DNA of 64,000 nucleotides from Candidatus Doudnabacteria bacterium. GTDB taxonomy: Bacteria > Patescibacteriota > Doudnabacteria > UBA920. Shown here piece by piece: positions 13,992 to 60,643 of this stretch. Position numbers and translations under genes: made by a program. The number at the start of each line of letters is the position of its first letter. Within the stretch, counting starts at the first letter, position 1. The DNA lies in the NCBI GenBank assembly GCA_963837465.1, contig CAWINB010000004.1, forward strand, positions 394,853 to 458,852, given 5' to 3'. The notes under the pieces are model-generated. The model saw only the letters and a program-made list of their open reading frames with translations, had not been told where the DNA came from and did not search any database.

Positions 13992-14211
13992 ATTTAGCCT
14001 TGTTTAAGGCATATTTTGTATTAGCTAAAAGAGCAATTTTCTGAAATTTGCCCTTTTCTTTTTGCCCAAAAACGGTTATAATTTAAGGGTAGACTTTATT
14101 AGAAATAGCTGTTAAAAACAGCCCAATGAATTGGGCGCGCTACATTTATACTCTCTTGCTAAATTAATTCCGAAATGTTAGAATAAGGCCAAGAGCCTTA
14201 ACCCTAACAAA

Positions 14212-14631
14212 ATGTACCAAATAAAACTGTCCGTCAGTGAGCTTAAAAAGATTAAACAACTTCAGGAACAGGAAAAAAATGTCAGAGTTCTGCGCCGTCT
14301 GGAGGCCATAAAGTTACTGAACCAGGGGCAAAACCATCAGGAGATCGCGGAAGCGTTTAATGTCTGCGTGGATACGATTACAGACTGGATAAAAATCTAT
14401 CAATCCGAGAAACTACAGGGACTACGCAAGCTACAATTTAAAGATAAACGGAAGTCAAAAATTAATGATTATGTAGACCAAATCAAACAAGATGTAAAAG
14501 ACAACACTATTACGACTTTAGCTGAAATGCAGGCCTGGATTAAGGAAAAATATTCAATTGAGATGGAACAAAGCTGGCTGTTTCGCTGCTGTAAAAAAAA
14601 CTCAATTTATCTTACAAAAAAACCCATATAG
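14212..14631 (+). CDS. IS630 transposase N-terminal (HTH) portion, orfA
   Basis: An HTH-like segment (QNHQEIAEAFNVCVDTITDWI) is present; the reading frame is split from the downstream DDE portion. Confidence 0.7.
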   Translation: MYQIKLSVSELKKIKQLQEQEKNVRVLRRLEAIKLLNQGQNHQEIAEAFNVCVDTITDWIKIYQSEKLQGLRKLQFKDKRKSKINDYVDQIKQDVKDNTITTLAEMQAWIKEKYSIEMEQSWLFRCCKKNSIYLTKKPI

Positions 14632-14672
14632 TTCCCAGCGGCGCGCCTGACAGAGAGACCCAGGAAGATTTT

Positions 14673-15248
14673 GTGAAATTAATCTTTAAAACCATAAAGA
14701 AAGCTGATAAAGACAAAGGCATCGTGCTGTTTTTAGACCCCGCTCACCTGGTCCATAATGCTGACAATAGCTACTGCTGGCAACTTAAAGGTAAAAGTGA
14801 AACTAAAAAGGTTCCTTCAAACAGCGGCCGGGAAAGATTAACTGTTATTGGCGCTATCAACCCCGTAGCTTTTAAACCCACTATTTTGACGACCGAAGAT
14901 AACTGTGACGGGCAAATGATGACAATATTCTTAGGGGAAGTCAGAAAAGATTATCCTAAAGCTAAAACCATATACATTTTCCTGGATAACGCCAAGTACA
15001 ACCATAGCAAGCAGGCCAACGAGGAAGCGAAACATCTGGGCATTGAGCTGTTGTTCCTGCCGCCGTATTCTCCCAACTTAAACTTGATTGAACGCCTCTG
15101 GAAATTCATGAAAAAGAAAGTTAAAGCCAACAAGTACTACAAAACCTTTCAGGAGTTTACAATCGCCATACATGATTTCTTTAAAAACATATCTCAGTAC
15201 AAAGCGGAGCTTAAAACACTATTAACTCTTAATTTTGAAATTATATAA
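14673..15248 (+). CDS. IS630 transposase DDE catalytic portion, orfB (split or frameshifted from orfA)
   Basis: Catalytic motifs VLFLDPAH, IFLDNAKYNHSK and LPPYSPNLNLIE match the IS630 D, D(34)E arrangement. Confidence 0.75.
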   Translation: MKLIFKTIKKADKDKGIVLFLDPAHLVHNADNSYCWQLKGKSETKKVPSNSGRERLTVIGAINPVAFKPTILTTEDNCDGQMMTIFLGEVRKDYPKAKTIYIFLDNAKYNHSKQANEEAKHLGIELLFLPPYSPNLNLIERLWKFMKKKVKANKYYKTFQEFTIAIHDFFKNISQYKAELKTLLTLNFEII

Positions 15249-15293
15249 TCGGAATTAATTTAGCAAGAGAGTATACATCAATATTATCTTTGG

Positions 15294-22124: not shown

Positions 22125-22348
22125 AAAAAAAGTGATTAGTGGCTAGCGGTTAGTGGATAGAAAACGCAGATTGCTTATTGATACAAAAGTGAGTTTAGCC
22201 ATAAAAAAAAAGTTTGTCAAACGACGCAACAGTAACATATATAAAAAATGGCGTCGTCCTGAGCGAGCCGTTAGGCGAGTCGAAGGATCTATGGTCGCTG
22301 ATTTATCGCGGATAAGGACGCTGAACTGGCGCTGAATTTAGGCTTTGT

Positions 22349-22410
22349 CCATCCCGGAATTTTTTACGTTGACGGTTATCGTAAGCTGTAAAAAATATCC
22401 GGGATCCAGA
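22349..22410 (-). repeat. palindromic repeat family 1, copy B (inverted relative to copies A and C), at the capA 3' end
   Basis: The reverse complement reads ggatcccggatatttttt acagcttacgataaccgtcaacg taaaaaattccgggatgg. Confidence 0.8.
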
Positions 22411-22428: not shown

Positions 22429-23607
22429 TTATGGGTAAAGAACGTTTTGGTCTTGTCCTATTTTATTTAAAATAGTTTTTGTTTCCTCGGCCGTGGCCGG
22501 GCGGGGTTGGGCGGTTTGGATTATGACTGGGATGAGCTCAATGGAATCCAATGTCGCGGGCTGGCGCTGGCCTTGGATATCTGACAGGTTTGCCGCGCCA
22601 GGTGTTTGGGCGTTTTGAAATTTGAAATTTGAAATTTGGATTTTCAACGCCAACCCCTCCATCGTATCCTCACTAAATTCCTGGTCAAACACAAAATTGC
22701 CCAAACTGTAAAAAATGTATTTTCCTTTATATTTTTCAACTGGCTGCTCCCAATGCGGGTGCGCGCCTATGACAATATCCGCGCCGTCATCTATGGCTGT
22801 GTGGGCAAAATTAATTTGCGCCTGGTTGGGCGTGCGGGTGTATTCAATTCCGGCGTGCATTGTGGCGACTACAAAATCACATTCTTGTCTTGCCGTTGTA
22901 ATGGCGGATTTTAGCATGACAGTATTTTCTATGCGCGCCACATAATTGTTGGTGACTTTCCCGCCGTCATTTAAGGAAGAAAACGACGCGCCCACAAAAC
23001 AAATTTTTATGCCGTTGGATGTTACTACTGCCGGAGTCCAGGCTTGATCCAAATTGTCCCCGGTGCCTTCGCGCGCTATGCCCAAACCATCAAGAGTTTT
23101 TATCGTGGCGTCCACGCCCGCAAGTCCCTGGTCAAAAGCGTGGTTGTTGGCCAGGTTAATGATCTGGAAATTGTAATCCTTAAGTCCTGTCAGGTTTTGC
23201 GGAGGGTCGCCAAAAACCAGGGAGTTTCCCCCAATGACTTCGTCCTTGGCTGCCGGCGCCACCGGCCCCTCCAGGTTGGCAAAATTAAAATCCGTGGAAC
23301 GTAAGACACCGGCCATGCCAAGAAACGGGTAATCAACATTGCCGGATTTTTGTATGTCCACGGCCGCGTAGCGCGAAAGCATAATATCGCCGACGGCTAA
23401 AAAGGTTGTGGTCGCGGCGGCAGGAGTTGTCTGATTTTGTGATGATAATTGCCGACTCTCCTGGTAAAAATCGTTTAATGACCCCGATGAAGCCGGTAGT
23501 TTGGAAATGGTGGTACGGGAACCAAAAATATCATGGCGCCAAACTAAAAAACCGCCAATAAGCAGGAGGATAAAAACAGGGATAGTAATTTTCCGGATGA
23601 TTTTCAT
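22429..23607 (-). CDS. CapA/PgsA-family metallophosphatase-like protein (poly-gamma-glutamate synthesis family)
   Basis: An N-terminal signal/TM segment is followed by FLAVGDIMLSRY, a CapA-type calcineurin-like fold. Confidence 0.7.
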   Translation of the reverse strand: MKIIRKITIPVFILLLIGGFLVWRHDIFGSRTTISKLPASSGSLNDFYQESRQLSSQNQTTPAAATTTFLAVGDIMLSRYAAVDIQKSGNVDYPFLGMAGVLRSTDFNFANLEGPVAPAAKDEVIGGNSLVFGDPPQNLTGLKDYNFQIINLANNHAFDQGLAGVDATIKTLDGLGIAREGTGDNLDQAWTPAVVTSNGIKICFVGASFSSLNDGGKVTNNYVARIENTVMLKSAITTARQECDFVVATMHAGIEYTRTPNQAQINFAHTAIDDGADIVIGAHPHWEQPVEKYKGKYIFYSLGNFVFDQEFSEDTMEGLALKIQISNFKFQNAQTPGAANLSDIQGQRQPATLDSIELIPVIIQTAQPRPATAEETKTILNKIGQDQNVLYP

Positions 23608-23722
23608 TTATAGGAGTTTACACCCCGGAATTTTTCACTTCAGCGCCTATTATCAGGTGAAAAATATCCGGCTGGTCCGACAAAGCTTTAGCGACGGCGG
23701 AGGTCCAGGATTAAGCTTGTGT

Positions 23723-23783
23723 CCGGATCCCGGATATTTTTTGCGGCTTATGAATTACCATCGGCGCAAAAAATTCCGGGATG
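23723..23783 (+). repeat. palindromic repeat family 1, copy C, at the capA 5' side
   Basis: The sequence is ggatcccggatatttttt gcggcttatgaattaccatcggcgc aaaaaattccgggatgg. Confidence 0.8.
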
Positions 23784-23833
23784 GACGATTATAGTTGCTA
23801 AAATGTTCTAATGCTTACATGCTCTATGAACTA

Positions 23834-24931
23834 CTACCTAGCCAGCACATACTGCTGTCCGCCCAAATTTTTAACCCGGCCTTTCATTTCCAAAAAAGTC
23901 AGGGCCGAGGTTACGGCCGAAGCTTCCAGTCCGGAAGTTTTTATAAGCTGGTTAATTACCACAGGATCAAAACCAATTAATCTTAGCAAAACCGTTTCTT
24001 CCCTGCTGTCGCCCAAAAGGTTTCGCGCGGCTTGTTGCTGGGGCAGGGTCTTTAAGTTTAAATCTTCCAAAATATCATTGGCCGAGGTTACGGGTTTAGC
24101 GCCCATTTTCAGCAAGTTGTTCGGTCCCTGGCTTTGCGGGCTGTAAATTGGTCCGGGCACGGCGTAGAGCTGACGGTTTTGGTCCAGCGCGTGTTTGGCT
24201 GTTATGAGCGTGCCGCTTTGCAAATCGCATTCTATTACCAAAGTCGCCGGGCAAAGTCCGGAAATAATCCGGTTGCGGGCCACGAAGTTTTGTTTAAAGT
24301 TGGGAGTGCCGATGGGATATTCGGCAAGCAACGCTGCCCCGGCATCCACAATTCGCTTGGCCAATAACGCGTGGTGTTTGGGATAAAGGCTTTTTTCATC
24401 CAGGCCGCCGCCCAGCACCGCTATGGTGCGTCGGCCTTTTTTTATGGCGATTTCGTGGGCCGCGCTGTCCACGCCAAAGGCCATTCCCGAAACCACTACC
24501 ACACCCGCGTCCACCAACGGCTCCGTTAATTGGGAAACCGCTACCCGGCCGTAAGCGGTTATTTGCCGCGTGCCGACCACGGCCACGCACAGCTCGTCAG
24601 GCTGGTCCATTGTTCCTTTGTAATACAAAATTACAGGCAGTTTGGGGATTTCCAACAGCAGCCTCGGATAGTTGGCGCTGTTGTAAGCAAGAATTTTAAT
24701 CCCTTCCCTCTCCAGCTTTTCCTGTTCCTGCTCCAGGTTAATTTCGTCCCTCAAAGCCAAAAATTTTTCCGCGACCTCCGGTTCTATGCCCGCGTTTACC
24801 AGCAGACTCTTTTTAGCTTCAAAAGCCTGCTTGTAATTTTCAAAACCGTTGGCCATTCGCATAAGACGGCCGGGTCCGAACTGGGGCAGCAGGTTAAGGC
24901 CGTGCAAATATAAGGAATCATCAAAAACCAT
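23834..24931 (-). CDS. dprA: DNA processing protein DprA (Smf)
   Basis: The Rossmann-like DprA core has GVDSAAHEIAIKKGRRTIAVLGGGLD and a C-terminal winged-helix. Confidence 0.85.
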   Translation of the reverse strand: MVFDDSLYLHGLNLLPQFGPGRLMRMANGFENYKQAFEAKKSLLVNAGIEPEVAEKFLALRDEINLEQEQEKLEREGIKILAYNSANYPRLLLEIPKLPVILYYKGTMDQPDELCVAVVGTRQITAYGRVAVSQLTEPLVDAGVVVVSGMAFGVDSAAHEIAIKKGRRTIAVLGGGLDEKSLYPKHHALLAKRIVDAGAALLAEYPIGTPNFKQNFVARNRIISGLCPATLVIECDLQSGTLITAKHALDQNRQLYAVPGPIYSPQSQGPNNLLKMGAKPVTSANDILEDLNLKTLPQQQAARNLLGDSREETVLLRLIGFDPVVINQLIKTSGLEASAVTSALTFLEMKGRVKNLGGQQYVLAR

Positions 24932-24961
24932 AATAAAACAAGGATTTTATTAACAAACGGC

Positions 24962-24990
24962 TTGACAAAATTGCCGAATGGGAGTATAAT
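24962..24990 (+). promoter_or_regulatory. perfect-consensus sigma70 promoter (TTGACA-N17-TATAAT)
   Basis: The sequence is ttgaca aaattgccgaatgggag tataat. Confidence 0.55.
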
Positions 24991-24997
24991 AACATAT

Positions 24998-25140
24998 CAA
25001 GTACGCTTTTGTGTCCGCTACCCTATCTGCAAGTCGTAAGAGCCGATATCATCCCTCCTATTATCGGCTTGAGCATCAAGCAAAGGTTCGTAGACGATTG
25101 TTTGCGGCCTTTCACTTGCAGGTGGGGTAGTGGGTATAAA
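24998..25140 (+). ncRNA. candidate structured small RNA (unclassified)
   Basis: A 17-bp long-range helix (cuacccuaucugcaagu / acuugcaggugggguag, including two GU wobbles) encloses an 8-bp hairpin (agccgaua/uaucggcu) with a C-rich loop. It is preceded by the consensus promoter and followed by a palindromic element. Confidence 0.3.
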
Positions 25141-25223
25141 TTTACGAAGTACGAACAGGTGCGAACTTACGAACCAACAAGCGTATCGATTCGTACGTTC
25201 GTAAACTTAGTACTTCGTAAACT
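25141..25223. repeat. solo palindrome of repeat family 3 (tttacgaagtacgaa ... ttcgtacttcgtaaa), the cargo-less form of the GxxExxY mini-element TIRs
   Basis: The two arms match the TIRs flanking the GxxExxY gene at 59828-60316. Confidence 0.7.
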
Positions 25224-25226
25224 CCG

Positions 25227-25775
25227 CTAAGATATTATAAATGTTTGAATCTCTTCTTTAATTTTAGGAAATACTTCTTCCCGAAGTTTTTTTATTTCTT
25301 CATCGCTAAAATTTTCTAGCACAAACACGTCGGTCGGCATGTCCAGCCGGGAGGCGCGGGTGTCCACGCCAATTCTGATTCTGTGAAAATCCTGCGTGCC
25401 CAGGTTATCAATAATGCTTTGCACGCCGTTGTGGCCGGCGGCGGAAGATGACTCCGTGGAGCGCGTAACGCCAAATGGCAGGTCAACCTCGTCGTGGACG
25501 ACCAAAAGGTCTTTGGACAAATCCATTTTATAAAAATTACAGATTACTTTTAAAGCCTGGCCGCTGTCGTTCATATAAGTTTGCGGTTTTAAAAAAATAA
25601 CTTTATCCGGCCCGTTCTGCCAGGTGTAAATTTCGGACTTAAATTCACGGCCCGGTTTGGCCGTCATGAATCCATCGCCGTCATTTAAAATAAAATCCAA
25701 AGCCAAAAAACCCACATTATGGCGCGTAGTCTTATATTTCTCCCCCGGATTTCCCAAACCAACAATAAGTTTCAT
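25227..25775 (-). CDS. pth: peptidyl-tRNA hydrolase
   Basis: The N-terminus MKLIVGLGNPGEKY...RHNVGF is the Pth signature. Confidence 0.9.
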   Translation of the reverse strand: MKLIVGLGNPGEKYKTTRHNVGFLALDFILNDGDGFMTAKPGREFKSEIYTWQNGPDKVIFLKPQTYMNDSGQALKVICNFYKMDLSKDLLVVHDEVDLPFGVTRSTESSSAAGHNGVQSIIDNLGTQDFHRIRIGVDTRASRLDMPTDVFVLENFSDEEIKKLREEVFPKIKEEIQTFIIS

Positions 25776-25892
25776 TGGTGCATTCTAGCAAATATTCCTT
25801 TACTTGACAAAAGCGACGGTTTTGCTAATATATAAATACAAACGCCCCGTCCAGCCGTAAGGTCCGACGGGGTTTTGTGTTATAATTAAGCC

Positions 25893-26483
25893 ATGAAGAC
25901 AATACTTTACATTGACGGCAGAAACACGCTCGGAAAAATGGCCTCTATTTTGACGTCCGAAGGCCAGCCTGTTCCCGCTTGGGACACTTACAACTTTAAG
26001 GGGCTATTGGCCAAAGTTTTGGAAGGAATTGCCATTGACGAAATGGTATTTTATTTTGCCAAAATTAAAGAACATCCCGATACTAAAGACAAATCCCAAG
26101 CCTTAATTCAGGCTCGTCGGTTGCTTAAAACCGCACTGGAAAAACAGGGTTTCAAAGTTATTTTGGCTGGCGTAGTCCGTGGCAACATTGCCAAAGATCT
26201 CAGAGGTAAAGAAATTTTAGTCTTTAAGGAAAAAGGTGTTGACGTTAGTATCGCCGTGGATATGGTAGCAGCTGCCTGCGATGGCAATGTAAAAACCGCA
26301 ATCCTTGCCAGTTCCGATTCTGATTTACAGCCGGCCATTCGGGAAATAACAAAACGAAATGTGGAAAGTATCTACCTTGGCTTTGAGCTACAGCCAAACA
26401 AGGGACTGACCGCTACTACCAAACGAACAATTTTAATACGTAATTCCGAAGTCTTGGCTTATACCAAAGCAAAGCCGCTTTAA
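25893..26483 (+). CDS. NYN-domain (LabA/DUF88-like) putative ribonuclease
   Basis: The segment EKGVDVSIAVDMV ... ILASSDSDLQPAI matches the NYN/PIN-like acidic residue pattern. Confidence 0.6.
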   Translation: MKTILYIDGRNTLGKMASILTSEGQPVPAWDTYNFKGLLAKVLEGIAIDEMVFYFAKIKEHPDTKDKSQALIQARRLLKTALEKQGFKVILAGVVRGNIAKDLRGKEILVFKEKGVDVSIAVDMVAAACDGNVKTAILASSDSDLQPAIREITKRNVESIYLGFELQPNKGLTATTKRTILIRNSEVLAYTKAKPL

Positions 26484-27275: not shown

Positions 27276-28730
27276 TTAACTTTTATCCTTCCCCTGCAAC
27301 CGTAAAGTAATGGGGGTGCCCCAGAAGCCGAGTTCTTTAATGAGGGAGTTTTCCAGGAATTTACGGAATTGTTGGGAGATGGCTGCGGGGTGGTTGACCA
27401 GGAGTTCAAATTTTGGCGGGTTGGTTTCCGTTTGGCGGAGGGAAAAAACTTTGGGTTTTTTTTGGTCGCGCAACAGTTTGGGCGGATTTTTTTTCATAAC
27501 TTTGGCCAAAAATTCTTTTAAGACATCGGCGTCAATTATTTTGTGCCTGGTTTCGTAAATGGGTTTTATGGCCGAAAGAGCCTCCTGCAAACCTTTGCCC
27601 GTAACCGCCGAGACAAAAAACATCGGGCACATCCAAAAAAACGGGAAGTGGGTGGAAATGTAATCGCGGATGCTGTTGTAGTCGTCATCTTTTCTGCCGG
27701 AAAGCGACCGTGGTTTTGGTTTATTACCCTTTTTCTCTAAAGCTGCCTCGGGCGCCAAATCTATCTTGTTGGCTAAAATTACGCAGCCCTTTTGCATATT
27801 TAAAATTTCTCCGGCAATATGCTGGTCCTGTTTGGTAATTTCTTCGGTGGCGTCAATAACCAAAAAGCAGACGTCGCTGCGCCTGATGGACTTAAAGCTC
27901 TGGAAGCCGGAAAAAACATCAGGCTCGGCCTGGCGGTGATCTTTTCTTTTTAGGCCCGCGGTGTCGATAAAAGTATAATCCGTGCCATCCATCGTTATAT
28001 TTTCGTCTATGGCCGCGCGCGTGGTGCCGGGCACCGGCGAAACAACGACCCGTTCTTTTTTCAGGATGGCGTTAAACAGGCTGGACTTGCCGACGTTGGG
28101 TTTGCCGACAATGGATACGGCGATTGTATCGGGGTTTTGTAGGGGCAGAGCTTGCTTGTCCGCCGTAGCTTTAGCGTAGGAGGGCTCGCCCGGTTGATCG
28201 GATAGCGGGCGGCCAAGGCCAGCCCCTACACCCAGTTTAGCAGCCACCGCGTCCAGCATATCGCCTATGCCGCGTCCGGAAACCGCCGAGACGCCGAAGG
28301 AAGGCTTTACGCCCAGGCGGGAAAATTCACCGAGCGTTTCGGCCCAGGTTTTCGGCGAGTCCAGTTTGTTGACGCAGAGCATGACAGGTTTTTTGGCGGC
28401 GCGGATTTTTTTTAACACTGTTTTGTCGACGGCCATAACTCCTTCTTTGCCGTCGGCTACAAAAATAATTACATCGGCTTCGGTTAAAGCAACATCAATT
28501 TGTTTGCCGACATTTTTTTCCAAATCCCCGCCGTGGTCAAAACCCAGGCCCGCGGTATCCACCAAAGTAAAAGCCGCGCCGTTCCAGGCAGTGTCAATGT
28601 ACTGGCGGTCGCGGGTCGTTCCGGCGACTGCTGAGGTTACAGCCAGGGAACGGCCGGTTATTTTGTTTAGCAATGTGGATTTGCCGGCGTTGGGCTGGCC
28701 GACGAGGGCGACTATGGGAAGAGGTTTCAT
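27276..28730 (-). CDS. der: ribosome-associated GTPase Der (EngA)
   Basis: Two tandem GTPase domains (GQPNAGKSTL and GKPNVGKSSL P-loops) are followed by a C-terminal KH-like domain. Confidence 0.85.
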   Translation of the reverse strand: MKPLPIVALVGQPNAGKSTLLNKITGRSLAVTSAVAGTTRDRQYIDTAWNGAAFTLVDTAGLGFDHGGDLEKNVGKQIDVALTEADVIIFVADGKEGVMAVDKTVLKKIRAAKKPVMLCVNKLDSPKTWAETLGEFSRLGVKPSFGVSAVSGRGIGDMLDAVAAKLGVGAGLGRPLSDQPGEPSYAKATADKQALPLQNPDTIAVSIVGKPNVGKSSLFNAILKKERVVVSPVPGTTRAAIDENITMDGTDYTFIDTAGLKRKDHRQAEPDVFSGFQSFKSIRRSDVCFLVIDATEEITKQDQHIAGEILNMQKGCVILANKIDLAPEAALEKKGNKPKPRSLSGRKDDDYNSIRDYISTHFPFFWMCPMFFVSAVTGKGLQEALSAIKPIYETRHKIIDADVLKEFLAKVMKKNPPKLLRDQKKPKVFSLRQTETNPPKFELLVNHPAAISQQFRKFLENSLIKELGFWGTPITLRLQGKDKS

Positions 28731-28798
28731 CCAGGCATTTTAGCATTTAAACATAGAAGCATACAAGCACGGGGTCATTGGATCATGTGAGCATTAAA

Positions 28799-30481: not shown

Positions 30482-30558
30482 GGTCGTATAGCTCAGTTGG
30501 TTAGAGCGTTCCGTTCACATCGGAAAGGTCTCTGGTTCGAGTCCAGATACGACCACCA
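30482..30558 (+). tRNA. tRNA-Val (anticodon CAC), CCA encoded
   Basis: The cloverleaf has acceptor ggtcgta/tacgacc, a D-arm, anticodon stem ttccg/cggaa with loop ttCACat, T-arm tctgg ttcgagt ccaga, discriminator A, and CCA. Confidence 0.9.
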
Positions 30559-36802: not shown

Positions 36803-37274
36803 GGGTAATGACAAAAATGAGCAAAAATAATAAAAATGACAAAAATGGCGGACAGAGATTTAAAACAAAGGACAAAGAAGTTTGGTATTGAAGTAATTAA
36901 GCTAGTTCAGCAAATTAATGAAAAAGGTCCGGTTGCGGCAAAAATAATCGCCAATGGGCAGCTAATAAGGTCGGGTACCGGAGTAGCCGCGAACTACAGA
37001 GCTGCGTGCAGATGTAAGTCCAGAAAAGATTTTATTTCAAAAATTGGTACGGTAATTGAAGAAGCGGACGAAACTCAGTTGTGGCTTGAGTTACTTATTG
37101 AATCAGGACTTATAAAAGCGGAATTAATTAAAGAGCTTTTACAGGAATCAGGAGAGATAACAGCGATCATGACTTCATCAAAAGATTCGGCAATTAGAAA
37201 TCAACAAGGCGCGAAAGAATAGAGCGGTCGTATTTTTGTCATTTTTTTAATTTTTATTATTTTTGTCATTACCC
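36803..37274 (+). mobile_element. mini-element: four-helix-bundle protein gene flanked by roughly 45-bp terminal inverted repeats (gggtaatgacaaaaat ... aaaaatgacaaaaatg)
   Basis: The left TIR (36803-36848) and the reverse complement of the right TIR (37231-37274) are near-identical. The element sits between hisS and the HIT gene. Confidence 0.7.
36836..37222 (+). CDS. four-helix-bundle protein (TIGR02436-like; '23S rRNA intervening-sequence protein' family)
   Basis: The helical pattern and the motifs LIRSGTGVAANYRAACRCKSRKDFISKI and EADETQLWLELL are characteristic. Confidence 0.7.
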   Translation: MTKMADRDLKQRTKKFGIEVIKLVQQINEKGPVAAKIIANGQLIRSGTGVAANYRAACRCKSRKDFISKIGTVIEEADETQLWLELLIESGLIKAELIKELLQESGEITAIMTSSKDSAIRNQQGAKE

Positions 37275-37622: not shown

Positions 37623-37683
37623 TGGAATTATGAATTAGGAAGTATGAATTAGGGTCATAATTCCTAATTTATACTTCCTAATT
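37623..37683. repeat. palindromic repeat family 4, upstream copy (ggaattatgaattaggaagtat ... tcataattcctaatttatacttcctaat)
   Basis: The interleaved inverted repeats are related to the copy at 37996-38063. Confidence 0.6.
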
Positions 37684-37746: not shown

Positions 37747-37995
37747 GTGAGTGTTTTGGTAGAAGTAAAGAAAAAAGACAACGAAAGTTTTGACAGCCTG
37801 CTTAGGCGTTTTAACCGCAAGATCCAGCAAAGCGGCGTGCTTATACGCGCCCGCAGAACCCGATTTTTTGACCCCCCCAAGTCCAGAAACCTGCAAAAAG
37901 TCGCCGCCCGCCGCCGCAGCCAGATAAAAGCGGAAAAAGAAGAGCTGAAAAAAATGGGCAAACCGGTTCCGGTAAGGCGTTTCGGGAGAAGATAA
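37747..37995 (+). CDS. rpsU: 30S ribosomal protein S21
   Basis: The sequence ...SFDSLLRRFNRKIQQSGVLIRARRTRFFDPPKSRN... is S21-like. Confidence 0.85.
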   Translation: MSVLVEVKKKDNESFDSLLRRFNRKIQQSGVLIRARRTRFFDPPKSRNLQKVAARRRSQIKAEKEELKKMGKPVPVRRFGRR

Positions 37996-38063
37996 TCGAA
38001 TTATGAAGCATGAATCAGGAATTTTGAATCGCCATTTCCTAATTCATAATTCCTGATTCCTAA
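37996..38063. repeat. palindromic repeat family 4, downstream copy (gaattatgaagcatgaatcaggaatt ... aattcataattcctgattcc)
   Basis: These inverted repeats flank rpsU on its other side. Confidence 0.6.
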
Positions 38064-38067
38064 TTCA

Positions 38068-44012: not shown

Positions 44013-44041
44013 GCTTTTGCTATTGACAAAATATGGAAAAA
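44013..44041 (+). promoter_or_regulatory. perfect-consensus sigma70 promoter (TTGACA-N17-TATAAT) followed by a short hairpin with U-run, abutting the IS5 left end
   Basis: The promoter reads ttgaca aaatatggaaaaaatga tataat. Downstream aaaaacatca ttat tggtgttttt forms a hairpin. Confidence 0.4.
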
Positions 44042-44113
44042 ATGATATAATACAAAGTCAATATTATAAAGCGCCAGATAAAAACATCATTATTGGTGTT
44101 TTTAGCCGGCCCT

Positions 44114-45389
44114 TTAAGGGCCTGTTGCCGAATGCTTAAATTGGTAAAAAGATAAGCAAGCTGATTTTAGTCTAACCCTTTTTAGGATTAAGTTTGGTTA
44201 TCTTCGTATCAATTGTTTTGTTTGAGCGGTTTCGGAGGGAAATTTCAGGATACTTTTTCCTCTCCGGACGCGCTCCATCTCAAAGCCCCAATCTAGGGGC
44301 TTGTTTGTATTGGCAGAATGGTTATGGCTTTTTTAAGGTTATGGCAAATGGCTTCAAACGTGACCTGGAAAAATACTTTAGCCCGGCCTCTGAATTTGGC
44401 TCGTTTTCTGCATTTGGAGAAGGTGCCTTCAAAGGGCATTCTCATGGCGGATATCCAGCGATCCAAATCTTTGTTCTTGGTTTTGTTATTGTTCTTTCTG
44501 ATAGTTCCCGCGTGCAGACCGTGAGCTTTTAAAACATTATCGTTTTCTTTGCAGTCAAACAGCTTGTCGGAAAATACCATACCCTGTTTGGGGCAAATAC
44601 TGTCGGTAGTCTTGTAATCAGGTACATTAGCGGCGGTTACGGCCAGTTTGGTAATTAAACCGTATCTCATGTCCACGGCCTCGTGCCGCTTGTAGCCAAA
44701 CCAAATGCTGGTCTTGCTTTTGGCTCCCCAGCGGGCGTCTTTGTCGGTGGCGTAGTTTTTAACGTTTTTGTTGTTAAGTTTTTCCTCTCCGTCGGCTATG
44801 GCTTTGTCCCGTTCATCCCAGAGGGCGGTTTTGGTAATGATACTGGAAGCATCGATGAAGGTAAAAACATTGCCGACTAAGCCAAGTGATTCTAAATGCT
44901 TGTTAATACCGGTAAAAATATCGTAGAGTTTTTGTGCGCCAATTCTCTTTCGTAGCTTGCAAAAGTAGGTATGGTCAGGAGTTTGTTCTAGCAGGCCAAA
45001 GCCAGCAAACCAGCGGACAGCCATATTTTCCTTTACGCACTTTTCCATTTCCCGGTCCGAGTAGTCTTCCCAAAACTGGATAAGCAAAGCCAGAAAGCCT
45101 TTTTCTATGGCTATGCCGGTAGTGCCTAAATCGCTATACAAAGAACGTAAGGGAGAAACAAACTGCTCAAAGTCGATGATTTCCTTAAGTCTCCTAAATG
45201 GATGAGTGGCCTCTATTATTTTGTTAAAGATCTGTTGTTCTGTCTGCAAAAGAAACGGGCTGGTTTTATCATTGGGCTGTAACATTTTTTTATTTTCCTT
45301 AATGTTTACAGCTTAATTATATCATTTTAAAAACTTTTTTACTTGAGGAAAACTTAATATTTTTTGCCATTCGGCAACAGTCCCTTTAA
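44114..45389 (-). mobile_element. IS5-family insertion sequence with roughly 22-bp terminal inverted repeats
   Basis: Left end ttaaagggcctgttgccgaatg (44114-44134) matches the reverse complement of right end cattcggcaacagtccctttaa (45368-45389). Confidence 0.65.
44293..45285 (-). CDS. IS5-family DDE transposase
   Basis: The DDE_Tnp_1-like pattern has FIDASSIITK ... DKLFD ... and a C-terminal basic tail. Confidence 0.75.
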   Translation of the reverse strand: MLQPNDKTSPFLLQTEQQIFNKIIEATHPFRRLKEIIDFEQFVSPLRSLYSDLGTTGIAIEKGFLALLIQFWEDYSDREMEKCVKENMAVRWFAGFGLLEQTPDHTYFCKLRKRIGAQKLYDIFTGINKHLESLGLVGNVFTFIDASSIITKTALWDERDKAIADGEEKLNNKNVKNYATDKDARWGAKSKTSIWFGYKRHEAVDMRYGLITKLAVTAANVPDYKTTDSICPKQGMVFSDKLFDCKENDNVLKAHGLHAGTIRKNNNKTKNKDLDRWISAMRMPFEGTFSKCRKRAKFRGRAKVFFQVTFEAICHNLKKAITILPIQTSP

Positions 45390-46776: not shown

Positions 46777-46805
46777 TTGACATATAGTTAGAAATAATGT
46801 ATAAT
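46777..46805 (+). promoter_or_regulatory. perfect-consensus sigma70 promoter (TTGACA-N17-TATAAT) with a long structured leader
   Basis: The promoter reads ttgaca tatagttagaaataatg tataat. Three hairpins follow before the ATG at 47082, including gtatcccttgc...gcaagggatac. Confidence 0.5.
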
Positions 46806-47081
46806 AATAAGTCAAAATTAAATTAGTTCTTTATCTTCTGGTTTCATTTTTGCTCTTAAAGAAAAAGCAAAAATGAGTCCAGAATTTCTGGCTCAATTGT
46901 TCTTTAATAAATATCCAGGAGGATAAACGTTACTATTTTAAATTTAAGTATCCCTTGCGAATAAAGCATCCATAAAATGAATGTTTGGATTCTTTCTTAG
47001 CAAGGGATACTCTCAAGTTCCCAAGCGCCCGGCACGTAGTGCCGGTATCCCAGTCAATACACTGTACAACGGAGAAAAAAG

Positions 47082-48584
47082 ATGCGTCAGAATTTTTTCG
47101 TCACTTTACTCGCCGCGATGCTCATTCTCACGGTGGGAAACGTAAACGCCCAACACAAGTTCGTCCCGACAACACCCGCTCCGGCCGTCGCACAGGAAAA
47201 ACCGGTGGCCGCGGAGCCCCCGGCGGAAACTCCGGAACAGGCCGCACCGGCAATAACTGACGACCATATTAAAGAGATCGCAGCAGCGGCGGTAGCAGAT
47301 GCTATTGCCAAACTGCCGGCCCCGCCAAGCAAGACCGCTATCGTGACGGAGGTTGTGAAGCAAATGCCATCCGCCCCCAACTATGACTTTTTCTTCTATA
47401 TCCAGGGTGGGATTGACCTCGTTCTGGCGATCGTTGGGGTTGTGTTTCTGTTGTTGCGCCGTAAGTCCAAGCGAAGAGTGATCTCTGGGGGAGCCGCGGC
47501 AGCCATTTTGTTGGCTTGCTTGATTGCTCTTTCCACGGTTCCTGTTCATGCAGCCGGTCCTACTGCAACTTGCACGCCCTATGTAACCAAGGACGGCACC
47601 CCCGTCGATATTACGTGCAAGGTTAACGGCATTACCAGCGCCGGCACGGTTACGTTTAGTGATACTAATGTGACCGCGACTGACGTCCACCTGACAGGCA
47701 ACACCTTGAAGTTCAAGGCAACGGCGGGCACTGCGGCGACGGCTCCCAACAGCCCCGACATGGCGGTTGATACTACCGCCGTCGGTTCTCCACTTGCGGT
47801 ACTGGACAATAACAGCGCCGCTCTCGCAGATATGGTCGTCAACATCGTCAAAGGATCCCCCGCTCCCACCACGGGCAGCGGCGCTTCCTCGGGAGGCGAC
47901 GACATCCGTTGGCACGCATTGTTTAACAGCGTCTGCGGAGTTGATAAGGCCCATGCCCGCTGCGGAAGGGAATTCGGACCCGCCATTACGGGGGACGAAT
48001 TGTTTGCGAAGCTGAAGGCGGCTCGCAACCAAGCGGAGGAAAACCTGGTGATGGGTATGTTCTCCAATGCTGTGGAGTTTAACTCTACCGACCGGGTTTT
48101 CCAAGACGATCGCTTCAAGGACGCCGCAAAGAAGACCGCGGATGCTCTCGCCGCCCTGAATGGGGCTGTTCAGAGCATCCAAGGCGGCGTAACCGAAACC
48201 CGCGTTCGCGCAATCGCTCGCGAGGAAGTTCAACCGGCCACCACGGCGGCTAATGAGGCTAAGGGCATCGCTGGTCAGGCGCTTGGCGAGGCAACTCGCG
48301 CCAATCTTCGGTTGACCAACATCGAACCCGTCATCAGTGCGAACGTCGAAGCCACGCAAGCGGCTCTCGAACTTGGTGACCATGGCGGTTCCTTCCTCGG
48401 CTTCGGCGGCGGCCCCAAACGGGATGTCAAGGTCGAAGCGAGGGCGGCTGGGTTTAAGCTCTTCTGTGCCCAGACGCTAGCCAAAACCGGCAAACCGGGC
48501 GAAGGTTGCCCGGTTCCGCAGTCCCAAGCTTCGGCCCAAAACGGCACCGCTGGTACAGTGGTGCAGATGCAGCCGAAGAAATAG
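47082..48584 (+). CDS. secreted protein with internal TM/anchor segment, hypothetical (high-GC gene)
   Basis: It has a signal peptide (MRQNFFVTLLAAMLILTVGNVNAQ) and a second hydrophobic segment followed by RRKSKRR. Confidence 0.5.
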   Translation: MRQNFFVTLLAAMLILTVGNVNAQHKFVPTTPAPAVAQEKPVAAEPPAETPEQAAPAITDDHIKEIAAAAVADAIAKLPAPPSKTAIVTEVVKQMPSAPNYDFFFYIQGGIDLVLAIVGVVFLLLRRKSKRRVISGGAAAAILLACLIALSTVPVHAAGPTATCTPYVTKDGTPVDITCKVNGITSAGTVTFSDTNVTATDVHLTGNTLKFKATAGTAATAPNSPDMAVDTTAVGSPLAVLDNNSAALADMVVNIVKGSPAPTTGSGASSGGDDIRWHALFNSVCGVDKAHARCGREFGPAITGDELFAKLKAARNQAEENLVMGMFSNAVEFNSTDRVFQDDRFKDAAKKTADALAALNGAVQSIQGGVTETRVRAIAREEVQPATTAANEAKGIAGQALGEATRANLRLTNIEPVISANVEATQAALELGDHGGSFLGFGGGPKRDVKVEARAAGFKLFCAQTLAKTGKPGEGCPVPQSQASAQNGTAGTVVQMQPKK

Positions 48585-59828: not shown

Positions 59829-60316
59829 TTTACGAAGTACGAAAATTTACGAACTTACGAACATGACGCCTTCTATTTTGCGGCGACAGGATTTAATTCA
59901 TCCTGAGCTAAGCTATAAAATAGTAGGCGTCCTTTTAAATGTTTATGGTCAGTTAGGCTATGGCTTATATGAGCGCGCTTATCAGAAAGCTGTTGGCGTA
60001 GGTTTTAAAAAGGCAGGCTTATTGTTTGTGGAACAGCTCTACGCTCCGATTGTTTTTGAGGGTACTGTTGTGGCTAAAAATTATCTGGACTTTTTGGTGG
60101 AAGATAAGGTGGCCGTTGAATTAAAACGCGGAGACAAGTTTGTTAAAGCCCATATCGATCAATTGTATAATTATTTAGTGGCTAAAGATTTACGGCTGGG
60201 AATTTTGGTTTATTTTGCTCCTAACAGGTTGCACTACAAAAGAATTGTGAACCTGCCCCAAGATCCAAAGGTCAAATAAGTTTCGTAAGTTCGTACCCTT
60301 TTCGTACTTCGTAAAC
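59828..60316 (+). mobile_element. mini-element: GxxExxY-family gene flanked by roughly 36-bp near-perfect terminal inverted repeats
   Basis: Left TIR gtttacgaagtacgaaaatttacgaacttacgaaca (59828-59862) and the reverse complement of the right TIR (60280-60316), gtttacgaagtacgaaaagggtacgaacttacgaaac, are about 90% identical. Confidence 0.75.
59863..60279 (+). CDS. GxxExxY-family protein (PD-(D/E)XK nuclease-like fold, TIGR04256-like)
   Basis: The sequence YERAYQKAVGVGFKKAGLLFVEQLYAPIVFEGTVVAKNYLDFLVEDKVAVELKRGD has the GxxExxY-like pattern, with an acidic core (D...E.K). Confidence 0.7.
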   Translation: MTPSILRRQDLIHPELSYKIVGVLLNVYGQLGYGLYERAYQKAVGVGFKKAGLLFVEQLYAPIVFEGTVVAKNYLDFLVEDKVAVELKRGDKFVKAHIDQLYNYLVAKDLRLGILVYFAPNRLHYKRIVNLPQDPKVK

Positions 60317-60643
60317 TCATAAAGCTGATCCACTTGCTTTTTCTCTCTCGCTGTGCTATAATAAGTAGGTAATGATATTTCACGGTCGGTTTCCCAAAAA
60401 CAGGGAAGGAATATCTTTAGGACTAATATCAAAGAAACAAAAACAATCCGGATAATTTTCTGGAGAAGTTATCGGGATAAAACCAAAACACAATTAAATA
60501 TTTCCAAAAGCTTTATAATTGGCTCTGTCAATTGGAGAGCGAATTTATATCGCGGATTTATCCAAAAGCATTTAATGTTTTTGGAGTATATCCTGTTTTT
60601 GTGAATAAGAACCTATTTTCTCAAACAGGTTCCAAATAGATAT

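Follow-up and report, generated by a model that had tools for sequence, protein, structure and literature searches.

The window analysed here is a 64-kb stretch of DNA from Candidatus Doudnabacteria, a member of the Candidate Phyla Radiation (CPR, also Patescibacteria). Its intergenic gap 24932-25226, between dprA and pth, houses the subject of this report, a putative small RNA gene on the plus strand. The CPR bacteria concerned are uncultivated and have genomes of about 1 Mb with few recognisable regulators. DNA identical to the locus was also found on a Logan contig. In a first-pass annotation of the window, dprA and pth had been described as convergent; they are instead both located on the minus strand, in tandem, so that the RNA points away from dprA and towards pth. 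Neither the window nor its close clade of relatives has a same-strand gene downstream of the RNA. The features of the locus, with the helices of the predicted RNA fold named P1, P1b, P2 and P3, are as follows.

23834-24931, minus strand: dprA (open reading frame (ORF) with Pfam PF02481 and PF17782), flanking the RNA and divergent from it
24962-24990, plus strand: sigma-70 consensus promoter TTGACA-N17-TATAAT (-35 box 24962-24967, -10 box 24985-24990), matching at 12 of 12 bases
24997-25007, plus strand: 5' leader UCAAGUACGCU, predicted unpaired
25008-25034, plus strand: P1 5' strand of the 27-bp closing helix, in the minimum free energy and centroid folds, pairing with 25114-25140
25036-25037, plus strand: 5' half of P1b, a 2-bp junction helix predicted by RNAalifold, pairing with 25073-25074
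25040-25048, plus strand: P2 5' strand GAGCCGAUA, forming a 9-bp hairpin with 25062-25070
25049-25061, plus strand: P2 loop of 13 nt, U-CAUCCCUCCUA-U, C-rich, with its 11-mer at 25050-25060
25062-25070, plus strand: P2 3' strand UAUCGGCUU, pairing with 25040-25048
25073-25081, plus strand: 3' half of P1b and junction J2/3, GCAUCAAGC, with a nearly invariant C..AAG in the 37-sequence consensus
25082-25112, plus strand: P3, the second hairpin (13 bp, one bulge, GAUU loop)
25114-25140, plus strand: P1 3' strand ACUUGCAGGUGGGGUAGUGGGUAUAAA, with an invariant GGGU
25141-25223 (83 nt): family-3 palindrome, seen in the fold directly after P1, with arms TTTACGAAGTACGAA...TTACGAAC
25227-25775, minus strand: pth (peptidyl-tRNA hydrolase; ORF with Pfam PF01195), flanking the RNA and convergent with it

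The perfect promoter that the first-pass annotation had reported for this region was confirmed on the plus strand, with its -35 box 31 nt from the start codon of dprA. Exact matches to its twelve bases occur four times in the window, and matches with at most one mismatch six times, against 0.4 expected from shuffled sequence. Transcription is predicted to start at about 24996-24998, some 7 nt past the promoter. Promoters on the RNA strand were also identified upstream of the RNA in relatives: 33 of the 34 loci scanned match at 10 or more of the 12 bases, and 20 of these match at all 12. For locus L019 the stretch scanned was too short, and a 12/12 promoter is visible further upstream. The -10 box is separated from P1 by 16-20 nt in the window and about ten relatives, the other relatives having inserted extra sequence. 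Judged by these signals, the element is an RNA gene possessing its own promoter on the RNA strand. The neighbouring dprA has no Shine-Dalgarno (SD) sequence, and the upstream sequences of nearly all relatives likewise lack one at dprA.

A strong fold starts 18 bases past the -10 box and forms a three-way junction of about 133 nt (25008-25140). The folding energy of the plus strand is -97.4 kcal/mol (z = -9.3), and none of 200 shuffles was as stable. The long-range helix given as 17 bp in the first-pass annotation was borne out as P1 and is longer, at 27 bp; the inner hairpin with a C-rich loop, given there as 8 bp, was found as the 9-bp P2, and the second stem as P3. All coordinates given in that annotation were correct on checking. 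Each position of the P2 loop has a predicted unpaired probability of at least 0.94. The inner part of the P1 5' strand, CCCUAUCUGCAAGU, is conserved in sequence, and the P1 arms have no other occurrence in the window. The word AAGUA of the leader recurs in relatives whose promoter adjoins P1, and (AU)CAAGU is present three times on the sense strand, in the leader, the P1 5' strand and J2/3.

A DprA search of species-representative genomes yielded 53 loci, with DprA 57-74% identical in the closest 26 and about 40-47% identical in a further group. By label, both groups belong to Candidatus Doudnabacteria or to unclassified Patescibacteria, with doubtful bin labels in a few cases. Thirty-seven related loci, with DprA sharing just 39-74% identity, carry the RNA element in the corresponding position and orientation, and the order pth - RNA - dprA - capA is conserved. 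BLASTN comparison of the intergenic region showed the structured part to be about 69-88% identical, upstream of dprA and on the opposite strand to it, with no match for the remaining sequence except the promoter. The exact 11-mer CATCCCTCCTA of the P2 loop occurs once per locus, in the same orientation, in 32 loci. On these sequence comparisons, Candidatus Doudnabacteria as a group keep the gene between pth and dprA. The element was absent from the pth-dprA gap of L029, from the Magasanikbacteria locus L038, where pth and dprA are adjacent, from L054 of the same phylum, from L010, a short scaffold with an assembly gap, and from all non-CPR loci among those examined. One 13-kb contig that carries the element, L037 (DATJFX010000056.1), is labelled 'Candidatus Methylomirabilota'; it has the order pth - small ORF - RNA - dprA - capA and an RNA scoring 120 bits, and its bin label is probably wrong.

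Alignment of 32 homologues with MAFFT, analysed with RNAalifold, reproduced the three-way junction; compensatory changes are seen in 34 of its 47 pairs. The paired fraction of cells in this alignment is 96.2%, compared with 82.4% for column shuffles (none of 500 reached the observed value) and 37-45% when the partners are slid by 1-3 columns. With 37 sequences the values are 96.7%, 80.1% and 38-45%, respectively, no shuffle of 500 reaching any of the measures, and double (compensatory) substitutions are seen in 40 of the 47 pairs. The pairs are held by compensatory substitutions, as in structured functional RNA. These are present throughout the helices: in 19 of the 25 modelled pairs of P1 (97.2% of cells paired), all seven modelled pairs of P2 (98%) and 12 of the 13 pairs of P3 (96.2%); the junction helix P1b, with 90% of cells paired, is weakly supported. 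Helix conservation and covariation, proposed in the first-pass annotation as a test of its candidate, are thus abundant in the 37 sequences. Mutual information among the unpaired columns, which could have indicated tertiary contacts, reflected clade splits only.

The alignment also identifies the strand. G-U cells number 265 and A-C cells 22, which shows the structure to work on the plus strand of the window only, and pairing is 96.2% in the sense and 80.0% in the antisense direction. A covariance model built from the alignment gave homologues 105-153 bits in the sense direction, compared with 17-40 bits for the reverse strand, and found one copy in the window. It recovered two divergent members outside the seed, L028 (74 bits, with the RNA 1.7 kb from dprA) and L032 (34 bits, with a 46-nt insertion within P3). 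A pattern scan of metagenome contigs with the RNA only, involving no selection for dprA, listed 80 loci, of which four were true and the remainder chance matches; all four true matches again lie between pth and dprA. As this loose pattern is mostly matched by chance, it says little about abundance. The stand-alone small RNA with its own promoter proposed in the first-pass annotation is supported by the conserved fold, the strand signal and the conserved promoter, and the element is almost certainly a real, independently transcribed structured small RNA.

Comparison with the 4227 models of Rfam 15, including 6S, SRP, RNase P, tmRNA, 5S, Y RNA/YrlA, RsaE, riboswitches and ribozymes, gave nothing at gathering thresholds in the 64-kb window but a tRNA (30482-30555), and no match at the RNA in 17 relatives. 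With the threshold relaxed to E<=10, region 24850-25320 gave chance-level hits only, the best (E = 1.1) being a plastid 3'UTR hairpin on the palindrome. On the minus strand of P2, a weak hit (E = 3.9) to group II intron domain 5 (D5) was rejected, as P2 has a 13-nt loop with no GNRA tetraloop and no bulge. The search agrees with the first-pass annotation, in which no likeness to tmRNA, SRP, RNase P or 6S had been seen, and by this measure the RNA belongs to no described RNA family.

The function of the RNA is suggested by the P2 loop. Its 11-mer is identical in 36 of 38 homologues and unchanged down to relatives with about 39% identical DprA, and the two outliers, L028 and L032, keep the core CCCUCCUA, which is invariant in all homologues and complementary to the SD-like sequence 5'-UAGGAGGG-3'. 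The loop 5'-CAUCCCUCCUA-3' as a whole is complementary to 5'-UAGGAGGGAUG-3', containing a strong SD sequence (GGAGG). As modelled, it is a conserved, unpaired, GGAGG-complementary C-rich motif of the kind found in UCCC-type anti-SD small RNAs. In Staphylococcus aureus, RsaE, other Rsa RNAs and RNAIII have unpaired UCCC or C-rich loops whose binding to SD regions keeps the initiation complex from forming (PMC2790875), and LhrC has been cited among the small RNAs whose C-rich motifs bind SD regions (PMC4132741). RsaE/RoxS, the Rsa RNAs, the RNAIII hairpins and LhrC resemble the RNA described here in being stand-alone genes with their own promoter and, to judge from the relatives of the window, probably their own terminator, and RNAs of the RsaE/RoxS type share with it a conserved unpaired C-rich hairpin-loop motif complementary to the SD. 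They show no homology to it in sequence or structure, however (no Rfam match at E<=10), and carry several short UCCC motifs, whereas the RNA here has one 13-nt loop with 11 invariant nucleotides. It further differs in its three-way junction closed by a 25-27-bp helix and in belonging to a CPR lineage in which most genes are seemingly without SD. By analogy, the element is best read as a new family of stand-alone structured regulatory RNA, likened to the UCCC-type anti-SD RNAs.

Since the C-rich-loop small RNAs of Firmicutes are the best-understood class with such a loop, base pairing in trans through the anti-SD-like loop, with occlusion of the SD, is regarded as the likeliest mechanism, a tentative choice to which we would give somewhat less than an even chance. 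The exposed loop would pair with G-rich 5'-(UA)GGAGGG-3' in the ribosome-binding sites of the SD-bearing minority of mRNAs, and this pairing would keep the 30S subunit from binding or expose the duplex to RNases. P1 and P3 are envisaged as a rigid, nuclease-resistant scaffold, and the 25-27-bp P1 may also be a processing site for RNase III. A plausible local target is found in the distant clade of relatives (eight loci: L028, L030-L035 and L037), where an SD-led small hydrophobic ORF of 45-118 aa begins 21-91 nt past the RNA, on the RNA strand. The products have one or two predicted transmembrane segments or a lipoprotein signal, with no evident mutual similarity. These ORFs are missing from the clade of the window, in which a terminator and pth come after the RNA.

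Several observations weigh against SD occlusion in trans. A search of 321 kb of Doudnabacteria DNA, comprising some 6% of one genome plus 7-kb pieces from others, found no site with at most one mismatch to the loop complement except the gene's own antisense, and such sites are not enriched in the window. An SD-like motif precedes only about 13 of 54 window genes in a crude ORF-based count, and many genes show a -10 box some 7 nt ahead of the ATG, suggesting leaderless mRNAs; with so few SD-led genes, generic SD targeting would touch few mRNAs. The invariance of all 11 loop positions, together with the conserved inner P1, fits a single partner (protein or stable RNA) at least equally well. Lastly, no U-tract comes after the palindrome to mark the 3' end of the RNA in the window. 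A ranking of start regions by duplex energy was discarded, its start-codon picker being biased to internal SD-like sites.

Leaderless-like gene starts are seen across the window (e.g. 25775-25800, 25870-25895 and 28730-28755), and examples of -10-like boxes are TAGAAT-N7-ATG at pth, TATAAT-N7-ATG at an NYN gene and TAAAAT-N7-ATG at der. This arrangement suggests that leaderless mRNAs are widespread in the organism.

Among other explanations, the one with most weight, although still unlikely in our estimation, is that the loop and the conserved inner P1 bind a conserved protein, or that the RNA is a subunit of a ribonucleoprotein. In a decoy variant it could mimic the 16S rRNA 3' end (AUCA..CCUCC), titrating Era, an rRNA maturation RNase, bS21 or IF3. 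Invariance of 11 of 11 loop nucleotides favours such a partner, as do the P1 words CCU/GGGU/GCAAGU, conserved in sequence although pairing alone tolerates change, the consensus promoter, which suggests an abundant, housekeeping-type RNA, and the failure of the target search above to find an mRNA. The 16S rRNA tail, which we take to read AUCACCUCCU, resembles the close-clade loop, which reads AUCAUCCCUCCU: CCUCCU is common to both, and the preceding AUCA is shared only with the close clade. The AUCA part is lost in the distant clade, which reads GCAUCCCUCC, and no candidate for a partner lies beside the RNA, which has only pth, dprA and capA as neighbours. The two also differ in form, the rRNA tail being a free 3' end and the RNA here a closed hairpin loop, and in their flanks, CAUCCCUCCUA here against what is presumably GAUCACCUCCUUA in the rRNA. 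A likeness of AAGUCGUAA...AUCAUCCCUCCU to the 3' strand of 16S helix 34, as well as to helix 45 plus tail, was set aside, the words being lost in the distant clade. Less probable again is a regulator of dprA acting at the locus itself or as a cis-antisense RNA, whereby transcription of the RNA, or its pairing with a read-through pth-dprA mRNA, sets dprA expression. Its appeal lies in the order pth - RNA - dprA, from which none of the 37 loci departs, the four from the RNA-only search among them, in the 31 nt between the RNA -35 box and the dprA start codon, and in the precedent of the Streptococcus pneumoniae csRNAs (ccn genes), which pair with the initiation region of comC, including its SD-AUG stretch, and control competence (PMC4507080). 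The likeness to csRNAs is one of competence, since the RNA here adjoins dprA, a competence and DNA-processing gene, and this link is positional only; csRNAs consist of two stem-loops and an unpaired linker, are multi-copy and under two-component control, and no homology to them was detected. Selection on the RNA's own fold (covariation, strand-specific G-U), unneeded by a simple antisense RNA, argues against this explanation, as does L028 with its RNA 1.7 kb away from dprA. In the distant clade, moreover, an RNA-strand gene lies between pth and the RNA, which makes a pth-dprA read-through transcript impossible there.

Little credence is likewise given to the RNA being, or having been, the 5' untranslated region of a small hydrophobic gene, in which the CCUCC loop masks the SD as in a leader or a module resembling a type I toxin. 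The SD-led ORFs of the distant clade, with GGAGG sites to which the loop is complementary, fit this explanation, and their arrangement, a structured anti-SD RNA followed by a short hydrophobic ORF, is similar to that of type I toxin mRNA 5' regions (hok, tisB, aapA1). The window and about 27 close relatives have no such ORF or other downstream same-strand gene, however, and their RNA is equally conserved. In addition, L031 and L095 have terminator-like hairpins between the RNA and the ORF, the small proteins lack evident similarity among themselves, no antisense antitoxin is evident, and the 25-bp P1 is too stable for a switching leader. A riboswitch or other cis-regulatory leader was rejected on the same ground, a same-strand downstream gene being present only in the distant clade. 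A highly divergent universal housekeeping RNA (6S, SRP, Y RNA or 5S-like) missed by the Rfam models is very unlikely. It would account for the consensus promoter, the single copy and the lineage-wide conservation, and the search of the 64-kb window detected no 6S, SRP, RNase P or tmRNA gene, so that presence elsewhere excludes none of them. Against it stand the lack of any Rfam match at E<=10 in the window or at gathering thresholds in the 17 relatives, and the lack of a 6S central bubble, a GNRA-capped SRP helix 8 with internal loops, a tRNA-like module or 5S loops C and E. Like the RNA here, 6S RNA is of an abundant-looking, single-copy housekeeping type with a long closing helix and a strong promoter. 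It is a rod of about 180 nt, however, with a large central bubble mimicking an open promoter, whereas the RNA here has no central bubble flanked by two long irregular arms; only 0-1 nt is unpaired 3' of the junction, almost all unpaired nucleotides lying 5' of it along with a full hairpin, and no Rfam 6S match was obtained.

That the element is not an RNA gene at all, and is instead a small protein gene or a DNA-level repeat such as a miniature inverted-repeat transposable element (MITE) with terminal inverted repeats, is barely credible. An ORF of 73 aa is present at 25009-25230, one frame is often open in relatives, and P1 resembles inverted repeats. The first-pass annotation had considered this ORF poor and the region without a plausible protein, and it was rejected as a gene here after failing a conserved-ORF test, its start, length and replacement pattern being unconserved in the homologues. 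Stops occur in all three frames across the core in 22 of 32 homologues. The recurrent frame (..PYLQVAKAGIIPPITG..), open in many relatives, has no start codon in 6 of 35 homologues and elsewhere begins with TTG or GTG and once with ATG; its length varies from 13 to 97 codons, and an SD-like motif was seen only in L003. In this frame the covariation of P2 would amount to radical amino-acid replacements, and the wobble positions in the loop are all invariant. A minus-strand mini-ORF of nine codons behind an apparent 'AGGAGGGAUG' was also rejected: its SD-AUG spacing of 1 nt is unworkable, and the G-U pairs place the function on the opposite strand. A MITE or interspersed repeat was discounted on the single copy of the helix arms and of the model in the window and on the strict synteny, always at pth-dprA, to which the strand-specific G-U pairing can be added. 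Two scans of viral contigs gave no true covariance-model match among the listed candidates that were tested (80 of at least 120, plus one).

The 3' end of the RNA can be placed between 25140 and about 25225, giving a predicted size of about 145 nt, or at most some 230 nt if it takes in the palindrome. The first-pass annotation had the RNA end in the family-3 palindrome and suggested that this could act as a terminator. The palindrome itself is real by fold and by repeat search. It lies outside the conserved RNA, however, most relatives having ordinary intrinsic terminators at this place, such as the hairpin and U-tract found right after P1 in close relatives and followed by convergent pth (e.g. 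AAAAAACCGCACTAGTGCGGTTTTTT in L009). As regards termination, the palindrome is a long stable hairpin at the terminator position; the sequence after it reads CUCCGCUAAG on the plus strand and UUUAUA on the minus strand, neither of which provides the U-tract of an intrinsic terminator, and a terminator scan did not report the palindrome. It may nonetheless stop or process transcripts as a long hairpin, forming the 3' end of both the RNA and pth. The family-3 arms recur in the window at 59829-59862 and 60280-60321, where they bracket to the base a PDDEXK_3 gene (PD-(D/E)XK, 'GxxExxY'; 59863-60279). The palindrome after the RNA is thus a cargo-free copy of a hairpin repeat that occurs genome-wide. 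L014 likewise has this palindrome behind the RNA, with a separate canonical terminator following it.

A module consisting of an A-tract, a short hairpin and a U-tract was identified between the promoter and P1 in L003, L004, L007, L011, L014, L015, L017-L020, L023 and L033. It is located about 20-120 nt before the RNA, on the RNA strand, and in L003 (AAAAAAAAGGGGAGGTTTTTTT) it abuts P1. Its loop is G-rich and SD-like in 8 of the 12 loci (GGGGAGG, GGGAGG, AGGAGG, AGGGAGG, GGGGG). Possible roles for the module are pairing with the CCUCC loop, attenuation of the RNA's transcription and termination of transcripts from the other strand. On the bolder proposal considered below, the RNA may in some species regulate itself through a hairpin with a GGAGG loop between its promoter and P1.

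To our knowledge, no regulatory RNA has been characterised in the CPR. A literature search found no described regulatory RNA for these bacteria and no paper on small RNAs of Doudnabacteria or Patescibacteria, and the loop sequence was found in it only in unrelated primers. The element constitutes a covariation-proven RNA family fit for Rfam, with a defined promoter, a three-way junction and an invariant 11-nt single-stranded element. It offers a handle on post-transcriptional control in a CPR group and can be searched for in metatranscriptomes; a more modest practical gain is that a conserved 'empty' intergenic region is explained and its annotation improved. The anti-SD-like loop is intriguing because most genes of the organism seem to lack an SD, by the crude count given above. 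A bolder proposal, which we consider doubtful, is that of a phylum-wide CPR housekeeping RNA displaying an anti-SD mimic and acting globally in a mostly leaderless genome. If true, a global RNA would sequester the SD-led minority of mRNAs or decoy a factor that recognises the 16S rRNA 3' end; this would be a new layer of translation control and the first functionally interpretable class of regulatory RNA in the CPR.

Two of the other perfect promoters in the window also precede structured sequence. Downstream of an orphan TTGACA-N17-TATAAT at 44023-44051 (plus strand), some 250 nt lack any plus-strand gene, and the gene that comes next (44293-45285) is on the minus strand. The region 44058-44312 has a folding energy of -92 kcal/mol (z = -6.9), gave no Rfam match at E<=1 and has a terminator-like hairpin, AAAGCCCCAATCTAGGGGCTTGTTTG, at its end. 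On the strength of this predicted fold, 44023-44312 is a candidate for a second small RNA of no known family. The third promoter, at 46777-46805 (plus strand), precedes a leader of about 270 nt in front of a 500-aa gene starting at 47082. This region (46777-47082) contains a 26-bp inverted repeat (46947-46972/46986-47011), gave chance-level Rfam hits only and may be a cis-regulatory leader.

Inverted-repeat arms also enclose three further genes of the window: capA/PGA_cap at 22429-23607 (arms 22347-22410 and 23722-23786), a 23S_rRNA_IVP four-helix-bundle gene at 36836-37222 (arms 36803-36835 and 37242-37274) and the bS21 gene at 37747-37995 (arms 37625-37653 and 38036-38066). The palindromes are built of repeated words of 7-8 nt (TACGAAG, GGAACAC, GAATTAT...), and relatives carry other word families at equivalent intergenic positions. 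An IS630-type insertion sequence is located at 14144-15278, with an HTH (helix-turn-helix) ORF at 14212-14631, a DDE_3 ORF at 14673-15248 and flanking 30-bp terminal inverted repeats that are 97% complementary.

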